Assembly (NCBI GenBank): GCA_002429485.1
Contig: DIZX01000002.1
Span: 3,082-67,081, forward strand
Source: Patescibacteria group bacterium UBA6017
GTDB lineage: Bacteria > Patescibacteriota > Saccharimonadia > UBA4664
Direction: 5' to 3'
Length of the DNA: 64,000 nt
In this document: one piece after another, positions 16,605-20,614 of the stretch
How positions within the stretch are numbered: the stretch's first letter is position 1
How the letters are laid out: every line of letters starts with the position of its first letter
Notes under the pieces: generated by a model
Seen by the model: the letters and a program-made list of their open reading frames with translations, nothing else
Database searches by the model: none
What the model was told of the DNA's origin: nothing
Made by a program: the position numbers and the translations under genes

Positions 16605-17087
16605 CTACTGTAGATACGAGGCCAGGATATAGCCCGCGGTCCCGTTAATCGTGACATGTGCATAGCCGCCACTTAAGCTTTCGTCAACGTATGTAACGGG
16701 CGTGTTAGCAGCAACATGCGCTATAAGAATGACCGATGACGATTTGGAGTTTGGTTGCGATCGGAAATTTGGCTGCAAGGAGGATTTTTTAACAATCGTG
16801 GCTTTGGCGGTGCTGGCGCCAAGTACCGGTGTGGGGCTGGGAGTGGGGGTTGGGCTAGAATCGGGGGTAGCGAGGGGCGTGGGGGTGGGACTAGCCGAGC
16901 TAGCCGAAGCCAGACTGTCCTGTTTCACCTGGTAGCGTAAATCAGTGATCTGCCCCTGCATTAATTTGCGGTCCTGTTCAGCGGTTTTGTTTTGGTTGTA
17001 ATTGAGGTACATCGACGCAGCCAGTCCGATGCCAAAAACGGCGGCAATTACTACCGGCAGATTGATAGATCCACGCTGGTTCATCAC
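16605..17087 (-). CDS. DivIC/FtsL-like membrane protein (TM + coiled coil + PT linker + beta-rich C-domain)
   Basis: 'LPVVIAAVFGIGLAASMYL' then 'QDRKLMQGQITDLRYQVKQ'. Confidence 0.4.
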   Translation of the reverse strand: MMNQRGSINLPVVIAAVFGIGLAASMYLNYNQNKTAEQDRKLMQGQITDLRYQVKQDSLASASSASPTPTPLATPDSSPTPTPSPTPVLGASTAKATIVKKSSLQPNFRSQPNSKSSSVILIAHVAANTPVTYVDESLSGGYAHVTINGTAGYILASYLQ

Positions 17088-17246
17088 AAGTCACTCCTAA
17101 TATTCTTCCGAGAGCTAGTATACCAAACTTAAGCTTGATACGTGGAGTGTTTTTAGATTAAAATCGTTGCATCAAACTTATGCTTACATATATTACATTG
17201 CTTATTTACCTAAAATGTGGTTTAATGCTTAAGTTCATATTCGGTT

Positions 17247-17593
17247 GGGGATGTGAACGAAATAAATAGTTTTGGGGCCTCACCTTGAGGCTGCGGAATT
17301 GAGAGTCTGATGACTGTTTGAGAGTGTTTACACCTCCAACCAGCCCAATCCCCCTCTCCAATCCGCATCGCAAAAGTGAACGGAAACATTTCGGCCTAGC
17401 TACTTCGGCGGCAGCCACAATGCATGTTCACGGCGATAACCTATCAAAAAACTATACTTGTTTTTGCACCGTCGAACTGTATTCGCGTGAGTTCCCTGAA
17501 CTCCGCCGCCGCCCAAATGGCAGGCCGTTCCGGTCAAAAACTCAAAATCACATAAAAAGGGTGGTCGCGTTCGCGTGACTACTTTCCCCACCA
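17247..17593 (+). ncRNA. Candidate structured ncRNA (~347 nt; tmRNA-like ends GGGG...CCCCACCA; identity unconfirmed)
   Basis: 650-bp ORF-free divergent region. 5' 'GGGGAUG' can pair with 3' 'UUUCCCC' just before ACCA. A UUCG-tetraloop hairpin lies at 17563-17580. A 12-bp terminator follows immediately. Confidence 0.25.
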
Positions 17594-17603
17594 AATGGAC
17601 ACG

Positions 17604-17643
17604 GGTCCCGCTTCCTCCTCGGAAGCGGGACCTCTCCCTTTTT
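17604..17643 (+). terminator. Rho-independent terminator (ggtcccgcttcc-tcctc-ggaagcgggacc + T5)
   Basis: Seen directly, 10 nt after the ACCA of the candidate ncRNA. Confidence 0.6.
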
Positions 17644-17733
17644 AATAACCTTTGGCGTTTTCTTGACATACCGCTGCATATCTGGGATTATCCACACGAC
17701 CCCCGTTCTTTGACCCGACCGCCGAGGAGAATC

Positions 17734-18480
17734 ATGACCGATTTTGTGCGAACCAAAGTTGACGAAAACCTTCGGCCGAAGCGGCCGAAGTTCCGCCTTT
17801 CCGGTGCAGTTGGATGGCTATTGTTCCCAGGAATTGACGCCGTGCTCGGCCCAACCCAGCGAGCAGACGGCAGCTTCCCCCTGCAGGTGCGGAGGCTGGC
17901 CAACGAGATCACGATCTTTCGAGGCGTGCTGATGCACCTAATGGCCGCCCTGTTTGCCTGGGCAGCCATTTGTCGCCAGACGGTATTCATGGTGATCATA
18001 TTGACCGTAGTCGCGGTGTTGTTCCTACTGGACGGGCTTGACGGAGAAGTTGCCCGCTACACGAAGGCTCAATCCCAATGGGGAGCGAGGTGGGATCCGA
18101 TATTCGACAAACTTGCCGGAATATCTCTGATGTTCTGGTGGCTCGTTTTGATCTACCACTTCGATCGCGGTCAGTTTGCCGTCTCGCTGTGGCTGGTGAT
18201 CGTACGAGCGTTTTTCGATCTGATTCTGGCAGTCATTGCCGAGATGGAGGATCGTCGCGATTTGAAACCCAAGGCTGGCCCCTGGGGCAAGATCAAGGCA
18301 ACGTTCGACGACTTTTCAATGCTTGCAGGCTATGCAGGTATAATCATCTATTCCTCGGGAGGTTCGGGGCATGATGCTATTTCGACTGGCCAGTGGCTAC
18401 TGCTTGCAGCCTGCACATTCGCTCCTCTGAGCATTTGGGAGCACTTGCGCAGTCTCTGGCGTCGGCGCCGCACTGCCTGA
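17734..18480 (+). CDS. CDP-alcohol phosphatidyltransferase family protein
   Basis: The motif 'DGLDGEVARYTKAQSQWGARWDPIFDKLAG' matches D-G-x2-A-R...G-x3-D-x3-D. ATG at 17734 with GAGGAGA at 17724-17730; the upstream part of the track ORF overlaps the terminator. Confidence 0.7.
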   Translation: MTDFVRTKVDENLRPKRPKFRLSGAVGWLLFPGIDAVLGPTQRADGSFPLQVRRLANEITIFRGVLMHLMAALFAWAAICRQTVFMVIILTVVAVLFLLDGLDGEVARYTKAQSQWGARWDPIFDKLAGISLMFWWLVLIYHFDRGQFAVSLWLVIVRAFFDLILAVIAEMEDRRDLKPKAGPWGKIKATFDDFSMLAGYAGIIIYSSGGSGHDAISTGQWLLLAACTFAPLSIWEHLRSLWRRRRTA

Positions 18481-18575: not shown

Positions 18576-20465
18576 TTATTGGAGCACGGCTTTGATGCGG
18601 CGAATGCCCGCTGAGCTGGACTCCTCTTTTTTGATCTTAAACTTCTTGTCGTGTTCGGCGAGGGCACCGGTGTGCTCAACGTGGGGGCCGCCGCAAATTT
18701 CTTTGGAGTACCACTCCCCTTTCGGATCACCAGCCGTATAAACCTTCACTGAGTCGCCGTATTTATCGCCAAACGCGCCCAGGGCGCCTTCTTTGAAGGC
18801 CTGCTCGGTTGGGATTTCTCGAAAACCCATGGGCCAATCCTTGGCGATGTTTTCATTAACGATTTTTTCAACTTCGGCGATTTGCTCCGGCGTCATTTTT
18901 TCGCCGTGACTAAAATCGAACCGGAGGCGTTCTGGAGTAATGTTAGAACCGCGCTGAATCACGTGGTCACCGAGGACCAGTCGCAGGGCCTTGTACATGA
19001 GGTGCGTGGCGGTGTGGTATTTGACGCTGATGTCGGAATGGTCGGCGAGACCGCCTTTGAATTGCCCGACGGTGGCGGTGCGGCTACGCTCTTTTTGCTC
19101 TTTGAGCAGTTTGTCGAAATCTTTTTTCCAGTCGGGGTCAACTTTGACCTGCTTGTCTCTGGCTTCTTCGAGCGAGAGCTCGGACGGGAAGCCATAGGTA
19201 TCGAACAGGGTGAAGATAATTTCTCCGGTGAGAGTGCTGTCACCAATTGTCATTTTAACGAACTCTTTAACCCCACGTTCAAGTGTCTTTCGAAACTGCT
19301 TTTCCTCCTGAACGAGAGTATGAATAATCGACTGCTCGCGGGCGGCAACTTCCGGGAAATCATCGCGATAGATCTCGGTAATTACGGGAACTACCAGTTC
19401 GAGGAAGTCCTCACGAAGATCGAGTGCCAGTGCCTGGCGGATGGCGCGACGCAGGAACCGGCGCATCACGTACCCCTGATCGGTATTGCTGGGCACCACC
19501 CCATCGACGGCCAGGAAAACGGCGGCCTTGAGATGGTCGGTGATGATACGCATGGCGACTTGGTTGTCGGAGTAGCTTCGACCAGAAAGCGCCTCAAGTT
19601 TTTGGATTACCGGATAATGTAGGCTGATCTTGAAGACGTCAGGATCGTTAATGGCGGCGGCAGCGATGCGCTCGAGGCCGGAACCGTGGTCGATATTAGG
19701 GGCTTTTAAGGGCTCGAATTTGCCGTCTGCAACCTTTTTGTAGGCCATGAAGACGTTATTGCCGAGCTCCACGAAGCGGCCGCAATCGCAGTTGGGATGA
19801 CAATGCGCGCCCCATTTGGGGTCGTGCTTGGTGCCAAAATCGTAGAACATCTCGGAATCGGGGCCGCAGGGGTCGCCAATGGGGGTGGTTTCGGGCCGGC
19901 CGTTGCGGCTCCACCAATTCTTGGAGCCGTCGTAGTAAAAAATACGCTCACCGGACTTCATGCCGCGCCTGTAGCCATCGGCCTCAGGGCCGATTTCGGC
20001 AACGCCGGCATCAATCCCCTTTTGCTTGAAGAGGCCCTGCCAGATCTTGGCGGCTTCGGTATCTTTGGGAATATCGTACTCGGGTGCACCAATAAAGCAG
20101 GTAATGTAGAGCTTCTTGGGGTCTAGCCCGACAATTTCGGTGAGAAATTCAAACATCCAGGGAACCTGCTCGCTCTTGAAGTAATCCCCGAGACTCCAGT
20201 TTCCAAGCATTTCGAAGGCGGTAGTGTGGCGGTTGTCGCCGACCTCGTCGATGTCATCGGCGCGGAAACAAACCTGACTGTCGACCAGCCGAACTCCGTC
20301 CGGATGGGTTTCGCCGAGCAGATACGGAATCATGGGCTGCATACCGGAGCCGGTAAACAAAGTGGTGGCGTCTTCGCGCGGCACCAGATTGGCGCGCGGA
20401 ATAACGGCGTGGCCGCGGTCGGCGAAGAATTTGAGATAAGCGGTGCGGATTTCGTTGGTGGTCAT
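18576..20465 (-). CDS. alaS: Alanyl-tRNA synthetase, short form (catalytic + tRNA-recognition + editing domains, no C-Ala domain)
   Basis: 'TTNEIRTAYLKFFADRGH' is the AlaRS N-terminus; 'KEICGGPHVEHTG' is the editing-domain zinc motif; the protein ends at '...GIRRIKAVLQ'. The internal ATG at 20465 gives 629 aa. Confidence 0.85.
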   Translation of the reverse strand: MTTNEIRTAYLKFFADRGHAVIPRANLVPREDATTLFTGSGMQPMIPYLLGETHPDGVRLVDSQVCFRADDIDEVGDNRHTTAFEMLGNWSLGDYFKSEQVPWMFEFLTEIVGLDPKKLYITCFIGAPEYDIPKDTEAAKIWQGLFKQKGIDAGVAEIGPEADGYRRGMKSGERIFYYDGSKNWWSRNGRPETTPIGDPCGPDSEMFYDFGTKHDPKWGAHCHPNCDCGRFVELGNNVFMAYKKVADGKFEPLKAPNIDHGSGLERIAAAAINDPDVFKISLHYPVIQKLEALSGRSYSDNQVAMRIITDHLKAAVFLAVDGVVPSNTDQGYVMRRFLRRAIRQALALDLREDFLELVVPVITEIYRDDFPEVAAREQSIIHTLVQEEKQFRKTLERGVKEFVKMTIGDSTLTGEIIFTLFDTYGFPSELSLEEARDKQVKVDPDWKKDFDKLLKEQKERSRTATVGQFKGGLADHSDISVKYHTATHLMYKALRLVLGDHVIQRGSNITPERLRFDFSHGEKMTPEQIAEVEKIVNENIAKDWPMGFREIPTEQAFKEGALGAFGDKYGDSVKVYTAGDPKGEWYSKEICGGPHVEHTGALAEHDKKFKIKKEESSSAGIRRIKAVLQ

Positions 20466-20614
20466 GGGGGGTATTGTAGGTGATTTTGAACAATAATTGT
20501 ACCCTGTGGCGATTTTGCTCAGAGAAAAGCGGTCCATCGATGTGCCGATAGGCCGCTGATCCCATTTTGCTGGGGGAGCTTTGGACGTGCTCCTGATCGG
20601 CAATGTAAGCCTCC

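Follow-up and report, generated by a model that had tools for sequence, protein, structure and literature searches.

We analyzed a 64,000-nt stretch of the genome of Patescibacteria group bacterium UBA6017 (contig DIZX01000002.1 of assembly GCA_002429485.1, positions 3,082 to 67,081; hereafter, the window). The ~650–base pair (bp) gap between two of its genes, which diverge from each other and encode an SH3-like protein (16605–17087, minus strand) and a CDP-alcohol phosphatidyltransferase (CDP-OH; 17734–18480, plus strand), probably contains a stand-alone gene for a ~410-nt structured noncoding RNA (ncRNA) at 17233–17643 of the plus strand. The RNA would represent a previously undescribed family that, as sampled, belongs to one clade of Saccharimonadia (Saccharibacteria/TM7). 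We give this reading as a whole a probability of roughly 0.7, and we are more confident still that the gap specifies a real structured ncRNA of a new family. A preliminary description of the gap had proposed a ~350-nt structured ncRNA at 17247–17593 with transfer-messenger RNA (tmRNA)–like ends. Its view of a structured RNA is upheld by the conserved promoter, the covarying closing helix P1, the folding energies, and the absence of a reading frame kept across the ten species, while the boundaries move outward to those given above, and its fallback of “another large ncRNA” turned out to be the right branch.

Both ends of the gene were predicted from conserved signals. The promoter is of the extended −10 type (TTGCTT-17-TGgTTTAAT). 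The same arrangement, TTGC(T/A/C)(T/A) followed by a 17-nt spacer ending in TG and by TTTAAT, was found in all 10 homologous sequences, with TTAAAT in that of locus L099 (loci are designated by L numbers). Exactly 6 nt separate the −10 box from the GUUC or GUCC that begins helix P1, again in all 10. Because this promoter is conserved, the most likely start is the first letter of GUUC, at ~17232–17233, and the GGGGATG beginning at 17247, which had been read as the 5′ end, lies 14 nt farther downstream. At the other side, the previously proposed end, ...TTTCCCCACCA, is reached at 17593, and the RNA body extends past its ACCA to 17600, where the terminator follows. The terminator had been described correctly: 10 nt after ACCA starts a perfect 12-bp hairpin (inverted repeat 17604–17615/17621–17632), followed by TCTCCC and T5 (17639–17643). 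An equivalent GC-rich hairpin and U run are located 3′ of the RNA in 10 of 10 homologs.

Homologs were reached by tracing relatives of the SH3 protein to their contigs and by using the CDP-OH protein and alanyl-tRNA synthetase (AlaRS) as additional baits. After duplicates were merged (L091 with L092, L093 with L094, and L095 with L096; L098 is a cut-off copy of L097), nine further versions were found beside the SH3/FtsA operon, in L005, L090, L091, L093, L097, L103, L095, L099, and L010, which makes ten species-level versions with that of the window. In the carriers, the gap upstream of the SH3 gene is free of open reading frames (ORFs) and 520 to 660 bp long. The RNAs range from ~350 to ~490 nt, and their 5′ domains differ greatly. 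Six of the ten (window, L005, L090, L091, L093, and L097) match one another by nhmmer, with E values from 1e-76 to 1e-5.

Several comparisons indicate that the gap has been maintained as nucleic acid. The window and L005 share 86% identical intergenic DNA from ~17153 to the next gene, with several single-base indels, while the proteins encoded around it are 89% (AlaRS), 96.5% (FtsA), 71% (SH3), and 55% (CDP-OH) identical. In tblastx, the segments jump between frames, none of which is preferred, and the single-base indels shift every frame. Since the DNA is 86% identical compared to 55% for the CDP-OH protein and no frame is favored, the gap is conserved as nucleic acid, not as protein. No protein-level similarity between the window and the equivalent stretch of L010 was detected by tblastx, and six-frame translation of the window, L005, and L010 showed no reading frame kept in all three, with stops in all frames of one sequence or another. 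Mechanical ORFs of 86 (plus strand) and 89 (minus strand) amino acids do cross the gap, so the preliminary description’s “ORF-free” holds in the useful sense only. The three longest gap ORFs have no Pfam match, no ribosome-binding site precedes any gap ORF, and in L010, L093, and other homologs the ORFs are missing or different.

Folding energies point in the same direction. With dinucleotide shuffles as a reference, the 17247–17593 segment has a folding z score of −7.25 on the plus strand and −3.2 on the minus strand. Full-length z scores are −7.4 for the window (17232–17645), −8.4 for L005, −7.0 for L010, and −6.7 for L103, and 0 of 100 shuffles were as stable. The predicted folds are multi-branched junctions of 350 to 490 nt closed by P1. 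In this closing helix, the first 8 nt of the RNA pair with 8 nt that end 2 to 5 nt before the terminator hairpin, and RNAduplex and minimum free energy folds recover it in every sequence. The strands of this outer helix, P1a, are GUUCAUAU/AAAUGGAC in the window, GUUCAUGC/GCAUGGAC in L091, GUUCGCAC/GUACGAAC in L093, GUCCGUGC/GCACGGAC in L097, GUCCGCAU/AGGCGGAC in L099, GUUCUAUG/CAUAGGAU in L010, and GUUCGGAC/GUUUGAGC in L103. P1a is 95% paired across the 10 sequences, and each of its columns 5 to 8 displays five or six double changes and four or five pair types. The RNA is assigned to the plus strand because the U-G pairs at P1a column 3 would be C·A on the other one.

Inside P1a lies a second helix, P1b, whose equivalents have changed on both strands (GUGAUG:CAUCAC in L090, GUGGGG:CCCCGC in L091, and GUGG:CCAC in L005). 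This is the GGGG/CCCC pairing that had been taken for a terminal acceptor-like stem. Judged by the paired changes, P1b is real, but it is an internal extension of P1 with P1a outside it. The letters ACCA are likewise present as described, although not at a 3′ terminus: they lie in the internal loop between P1b and P1a and have no counterpart in most homologs. Three elements lie within P1a and P1b, an arrangement that is directly supported: a 5′ domain that varies, a core arm conserved in sequence, and a 3′ hairpin.

Motifs GUUCACGGCG and AGCACCGUCG, which together make up the core arm, are found in all ten RNAs with at most two mismatches, and ~25 nt are invariant family-wide. In the window, the arm consists of AAUGCA (17419–17424) paired with UGUAUU (17478–17483), GUUC paired with GAAC, an A opposite UC, and CGGCG paired with CACCG; beyond the last helix, there is a (G)AUAA bulge and then an A/U-rich apical hairpin. 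The arm is thus built around an almost invariant internal-loop module, GUUC-A-CGnnn...nnnCG-(n)UC-GAAC, followed by the G/AUAA bulge. Its helices carry the double changes GAUC:GAUC (L097), UUUC:GAAG (L103), AGG:CCU (L093), CGACU:AGUCG (L095), and CGAUG:CGUCG (L099). From the six sequences that match one another, we built a covariance model of this arm, which independently matched L103 (30 bits, E = 4.5e-6 in 1.09 Mb). With filters off, it matched L095 weakly (12 bits, E = 0.036), as the top match in that locus. The model found no match in L099 and L010 and no credible match in the other 80 Saccharibacteria loci.

To quantify covariation, P1a and the core module of the 10 sequences were combined in a block alignment. 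Its blocks were chosen by position, without one bulged U of L090 and with N in place of the L010 module. Paired cells amounted to 91% compared to 74% in shuffles, and double-change cells numbered 27 compared to 8.2 ± 2.4. The covariation score was 0.486 compared to 0.155 ± 0.031, a value reached by 0 of 500 shuffles. When the 3′ partner was slid by 1 to 3 columns as a control, pairing was 27 to 54% and the score did not exceed 0.11. Where the blocks lie follows from the transcript ends; they were not picked by looking for complementarity. Automatic full-length analysis with MAFFT and RNAalifold placed the divergent 5′ domains out of register and, in one run, failed to recover P1; hence, the blocks were made by hand. 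The covariation analysis of homologous intergenic regions that the preliminary description had proposed therefore came out in favor of an RNA: P1a covaries, and the region is kept in nine relatives.

RNAalifold additionally predicted the long-range core helices CGGAA:UUCCG (with a double change to CGGAGC:GCUCCG in L091), GGCCU:AGGCC, and GGCGGC:GCCGCC; in L093 and L097, these helices had no unambiguous assignment. Near the 3′ end, the UUCG-capped hairpin noted previously is present at 17559–17584, with a stem of ~12 bp in the window and 9 to 12 bp in the family. The loop is UUCU, UAAAU, UUUUA, CUUGU, or UCC in homologs. Two other candidate elements were considered and rejected. An anti–Shine-Dalgarno-like CACCUCC at ~17334–17340 does not qualify as a functional single strand, being part of a covarying helix in close relatives and absent from L091. 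The segment AGGGUGGUCGCG looks like the T-box motif AGGGUGGNACCGCG; however, conservation fails in L090, L093, and L097, and no T-box model matches.

The 5′ strand of P1a has a second potential partner. About 10 nt downstream of it lies AUGUGAAC, and the local hairpin formed by the two segments and P1a are mutually exclusive. We compared both pairings over the seven sequences in which the local one is clear. The local pairing was 98% paired, with 10 double-change cells and a score of 0.75 compared to 0.31 in shuffles; the distal pairing was 96% paired, with 10 double-change cells and a score of 0.66 compared to 0.28. In constrained folds, the state with P1 closed was the more stable one; its advantage was 2.6 kcal/mol in the window and reached 13 kcal/mol in L097. 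With P1 closed, 17251–17258 pairs with UCACAU at 17548–17553. The covariation of the local pairing suggests a folding intermediate or a switch, and the simplest reading would be a cotranscriptional intermediate that is resolved once the 3′ segment has been made.

The family may be defined by the promoter TTGCnn-17-TGnTTTAAT, the helix P1a formed by the 8-nt ends, the module GUUC-A-CGnnn...nnnCG-(n)UC-GAAC, and an intrinsic terminator. The window has all of these, with a 6-nt distance between the promoter and GUYC. All 10 members have the promoter, P1a, and the terminator, and 9 of the 10 have the module. Scans of other collections added no members. The promoter/5′-end pattern produced four AT-rich chance matches in metagenome contigs (L086 to L089), the core pattern had no matches in viral contigs, and blastn revealed no similarity to phage and plasmid collections. 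Table 1 lists the features of the locus.

Table 1. Predicted features of the ncRNA locus (positions in the window).
Feature	Positions	Strand	Description
Divergent promoter region of SH3-p199-FtsA operon	17117–17136	−	TGgTATACT extended −10, predicted; overlaps CAAACTTAnGCTT copy 1
CAAACTTAnGCTT copy 2	17173–17185	+	~13 nt upstream of RNA −35 box; candidate upstream promoter/regulator site
ncRNA promoter	17198–17226	+	−35 TTGCTT 17198–17203; 17-nt spacer ending in TG 17218–17219; −10 TTTAAT 17221–17226; predicted from sequence
ncRNA primary transcript	17233–17643	+	~411 nt; 5′ end inferred from promoter, 3′ end from terminator
P1a 5′ strand GUUCAUAU	17233–17240	+	Pairs with 17593–17600
P1b 5′ strand UGGGGA	17246–17251	+	Pairs with UCCCCA 17585–17590; corresponds to the previously proposed GGGGAUG end
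Local alternative partner of 5′ end AUGUGAAC	17251–17258	+	5′ hairpin with 17233–17240
Core long-range helices, 5′ strands	17381–17397	+	CGGAA 17381–17385, GGCCU 17393–17397
Conserved arm, 5′ side	17419–17435	+	AAUGCA (P5a), bulged U, GUUC-A-CGGCG (invariant module)
Conserved arm, 3′ side	17467–17483	+	CACCG-UC-GAAC (module), then UGUAUU (P5a)
Core long-range helices, 3′ strands	17522–17532	+	AGGCC-G-UUCCG; AGGCC 17522–17526, UUCCG 17528–17532
3′ hairpin GGGUGGUCGCG-UUCG-CGUGACUACUU	17559–17584	+	GUCGC/GYGAC stem conserved, loop varies
P1b 3′ strand, internal loop, P1a 3′ strand	17585–17600	+	UCCCCA 17585–17590; loop with ACCA; AAAUGGAC 17593–17600
Intrinsic terminator	17603–17643	+	12- to 13-bp GC-rich hairpin, loop UCCUC, then CUCCC + U5

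Several points weigh against this reading. The transcript ends rest on promoter and terminator consensus only. The covariation counts come from small block alignments made by eye, with one bulge removed, and should be read as leaning toward structure. The core hardly varies (4 double-change pairs of 30), and its helices are backed mainly by conservation. L095, L099, and L010 share with the others only promoter, position, P1, and terminator, and two of them also a module aligned by hand. All ten sequences were obtained through synteny baits, a search route that introduces bias into their linkage to the SH3 operon. The RNA is missing from this locus in the close relatives L006, L009, and L011, and nothing in the evidence points to a specific partner or activity.

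The distribution at the locus is patchy. Among the 80 loci reached with the AlaRS bait, only L010 has the RNA; the titles of almost all of them name Saccharibacteria, Saccharimonadia, or Saccharimonadales. It is not at this locus in L006, L009, L011, L100, and L102. In L006, L009, and L011, the RNA is therefore dispensable, relocated, or replaced. The SH3-like protein exists in a short (~155 to 170 amino acids) and a long (~205 to 234 amino acids) form. We found the RNA only beside short-form SH3 genes; the short form without the RNA occurs in L100, L102, and possibly L104. At long-form loci, other genes lie between the AlaRS and SH3 genes, for example, a 677–amino acid ORF in L006.

The surroundings of the gene merit some additional remarks. 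The SH3-like protein is membrane-anchored, and the AlaRS gene lies beyond the CDP-OH gene. Contigs from four sources, GCA_002413465.1 and three metagenomes, encode a residue-identical CDP-OH protein, and their DNA is 100% identical over 17000–17800, with the gap left empty by gene callers. The CDP-OH protein falls in one of two database clusters, the other of which (L005) is 55% identical to the window protein. The promoter-like site of the CDP-OH gene at 17663–17691 carries TG, and its 5′ untranslated region (UTR; 17692–17733) is conserved as DNA in L005 and L090 despite a protein identity of only 55%. A 13-nt motif, CAAACTTAnGCTT, is present twice in the window (17124–17136 and 17173–17185) and at all homologous loci (e.g., L095:276–894 and L097:732–1346, reverse strand), with one copy ~13 nt before the −35 box of the RNA promoter. 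On the opposite strand, CAAACTTAnGCTT abuts the TGnTATACT extended −10 element of the divergent SH3-FtsA operon. In L005, an extra 185–amino acid ORF separates the RNA and SH3 units, and CAAACTTAnGCTT remains by the RNA promoter. The motif may serve both units as a regulator site, or it may be an UP-like element. No internal repeats were found in the RNA region, and a CRISPR- or TIGR-like repeat-array RNA was dropped as a candidate for that reason.

Some annotations at these loci are questionable. Gene callers have set ORFs of 90, 140, and 42 amino acids on the RNA gene in L005:4903–5175 (minus strand), L098:1–423 (plus strand), and L097:766–1264, respectively. Since the frames are not conserved, these ORFs are almost certainly spurious, and annotators should be aware that gene callers place such ORFs over the RNA gene. 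The AlaRS ORF of the window (18576–20603, minus strand) specifies 675 amino acids from a TTG start or 629 from an ATG at 20465. Assemblies of the same species are annotated differently (629 amino acids in L001 and 675 in L003), and 629 is short for a bacterial AlaRS. In L093:1–1809, which lies on an 829-kb contig, gene calling split AlaRS into three successive pieces of 237, 69, and 294 amino acids, most likely as a result of frameshifts from long-read assembly indel errors rather than a real pseudogene. Loci L021, L047, and L054 are titled Nanoarchaeia archaeon, Nevskiaceae bacterium, and Dongiaceae bacterium, with AlaRS 63 to 68% identical to that of the window. Their AlaRS resembles that of Saccharibacteria loci, and the contigs are probably mis-binned or mislabeled.

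Known RNA families were searched for directly. In the 64 kb, ARAGORN found two ordinary tRNAs, neither near the site, and no standard or permuted tmRNA; the same two tRNAs were the only Rfam 15 matches at gathering scores. When all 4227 Rfam 15 families were run over 16900–17900 with permissive filters, only noise was obtained at E ≤ 10. The best noise match, SorY, scored 21.9 bits compared to a gathering score of 111 and aligned to two terminal hairpins. Seven homologous loci also had no Rfam match at E ≤ 10, and the scans overall took in the window and 12 homologous or related loci. The Infernal scan for tmRNA, RNase P, and 6S that the preliminary description had proposed thus returned no family match at the gathering score or at E ≤ 10, and RNase P and 6S, which it had also considered, fall away. 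The region is not a tmRNA, RNase P RNA, 6S RNA, signal recognition particle (SRP) RNA, riboswitch, or other curated family.

As to what the RNA does, our tentative proposal is a folded particle that acts in trans. Its binding or active site for a protein or another partner would consist of the invariant module and the junction nucleotides next to it, and the fast-evolving peripheral helices would serve as a scaffold. The 5′ strand would form the local hairpin during transcription and later be captured by the 3′ segment, closing P1. Such a role as a partner-binding scaffold, acting through the internal-loop module, is possible, and we hold it with less than even confidence. A bolder and, in our view, unlikely extension is that this is a new large functional RNA class of ultra-small episymbionts, in which the mutually exclusive 5′ pairings constitute a real conformational switch and the GUUC-A-CG/CG-UC-GAAC module serves ligand or partner sensing or catalysis. 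If so, the RNA would provide these reduced genomes with a function for which they encode no protein.

An alternative to the folded particle is a base-pairing regulator, whose exposed single strands would pair with target mRNAs in trans. The stand-alone gene with its own promoter and terminator suits such an RNA, as does a CA/A-rich, apparently unpaired linker (17533–17558) found in every homolog. In addition, CGUUCCGGUCAAA (17526–17538) is complementary at 11 of 13 positions to 17709–17721 in the CDP-OH 5′ UTR, just upstream of GAGGAG, and of this complementarity, only the GGUCAA:UUGACC part recurs in L005 and L090. However, the linker sequence is not conserved, and the UTR complementarity is lost in L091 and partial in L005 and L090. 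The segment involved is a strand of a conserved core helix, and its complementarity to the UTR is probably due to chance. The RNA is also four times the size of a typical base-pairing small RNA, and hardly any of it is predicted to be unpaired. We therefore consider base pairing with mRNAs improbable. A trans-acting folded particle is favored over it because an invariant asymmetric internal loop and junction nucleotides are embedded in a freely drifting scaffold.

Could the RNA instead be a cis-acting leader of the CDP-OH gene, a giant riboswitch or T-box–like attenuator in which terminator formation depends on whether P1 closes? The terminator begins 2 to 5 nt after the P1 3′ strand, an arrangement also seen in transcription-terminating riboswitches. 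The P1 5′ strand has a covarying alternative partner, GGAC at 17597–17600 could base-pair with GUCC on the 5′ side of the terminator hairpin, and a co-directional CDP-OH gene lies downstream in five species. However, in L095, L097, and L010, the next gene is convergent, leaving nothing to regulate, and in L099, it encodes an unrelated phosphoribosyltransferase. A conserved promoter, TTGACA-17-GATTAT (17663–17691), separates the terminator from the CDP-OH gene in the window, L005, L090, and L091. The candidate anti-terminator has 4 bp compared to the 12-bp terminator, and no known aptamer or T-box model matches. Taken together, these data make a leader very unlikely.

A housekeeping RNA (RNase P, SRP, or 6S/Ms1 type) that has drifted past its covariance models is equally hard to credit. 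Its size, the helix closing 5′ and 3′ ends, the strong promoter, and the terminator resemble those of rnpB, Saccharibacteria genomes are reduced and fast-evolving, and 6S and Ms1 RNAs are described as notoriously difficult to detect by sequence (PMC9130861). Even so, eight independent homologs produced not even a weak match to RNaseP_bact_a/b, the SRP families, or 6S at E ≤ 10. RNase P RNA has five universally conserved regions, while only ~25 nt are invariant across the present family. 6S and Ms1 RNAs form an extended rod of ~150 to 300 nt with a large central bubble mimicking an open promoter, which is unlike a multi-branched junction of 350 to 490 nt. Furthermore, L006, L009, and L011, whose AlaRS is 69 to 88% identical to that of the window, have no RNA at the locus, though it could sit elsewhere in the genome. 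Such patchy occurrence at the locus in close relatives speaks against an essential role in housekeeping.

The tmRNA reading, with a tag frame in the body and ends folded into a tRNA-like domain that accepts alanine, is scarcely credible. Length (~350 to 410 nt), the pairing of GGGG... with ...CCCCACCA, and an own terminator had spoken for it. Beyond the negative ARAGORN result, no tmRNA family of Rfam, including the alpha, beta, cyano, and mitochondrial ones, matched the window or seven homologous loci at E ≤ 10. The third pair of the presumed acceptor helix is G-C, not the G·U of G3·U70, and this helix is internal, with the eight covarying pairs of P1a outside it. No CCA follows either helix in L091, L093, L097, L099, and L103. 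As the preliminary description itself had observed, a canonical T-arm and a tag ORF are not evident: the adjacent hairpin has a 9- to 12-bp stem and a variable loop instead of a 5-bp T-arm with GGUUCGAAUCC, and no ORF or tag frame is conserved. That the gap encodes one or more small proteins, as the two mechanical ORFs and a 90–amino acid gene called by one pipeline on the opposite strand in L005 might suggest, is no more credible, given that neither ORF matches Pfam, the indels between the window and L005 break every frame with none favored by tblastx, and the ORFs vary or vanish in L010, L093, and others and lack a ribosome-binding site.

Saccharibacteria and other Patescibacteria have ~1-Mb genomes, live on other bacteria, and are mostly uncultured. 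Our literature search found no study on ncRNAs of Saccharibacteria or the Candidate Phyla Radiation, and a 50-genome ncRNA survey contains no mention of these bacteria (PMC11109978). The retention of promoter, closing helix, module, and terminator next to proteins that are 40 to 55% identical suggests that the RNA is very likely important for the clade. It is rare for a new class of large structured RNA to be found, and of those described before, several proved to be ribozymes or to form unusual ribonucleoprotein or RNA-only assemblies. The novelty of the present case holds at the level of the RNA family, not at that of mechanism. As defined here, the family is a target for a covariance model, for metatranscriptome searches in soil, sludge, and groundwater, and for structure probing, for which the RNA is small enough.

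Comparison with known systems places the RNA as follows. It shares with tmRNA a similar length, the pairing of a G-rich 5′ with a C-rich 3′ segment, and a stand-alone gene with an intrinsic terminator, but it has no tRNA-like domain, T-arm, conserved CCA end, or tag ORF. It also resembles rnpB: both are ~350 to 400 nt long, with a P1 formed by the extreme ends that closes a multi-branched fold, a conserved core, variable peripheral helices, and their own promoter and terminator. However, there is no covariance-model similarity to rnpB, and its universal regions were not recognized in the window RNA, whose family is patchy at the locus among close relatives, ~350 to 490 nt long, and has rearranged cores. 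In its 5′ pairing, the RNA recalls E. coli 4.5S SRP RNA, in which a transient 5′ hairpin rearranges into the long native helix during transcription. In both, a local 5′ hairpin excludes the native 5′-3′ helix and both pairings are kept in evolution, although the sequences and shapes are unrelated. Compared to OLE, ROOL, GOLLD, raiA, and HEARO RNAs, to which the window RNA has no sequence or structure match in Rfam 15, the present family is far narrower, with ten metagenome-derived species from one Saccharimonadia clade and no conserved partner-protein gene identified. Yet it resembles them in being several hundred nucleotides long, intricately folded, and lineage-restricted, with an invariant core and a variable periphery; like it, those RNAs were recognized by covariation at a time when their function was initially unknown.

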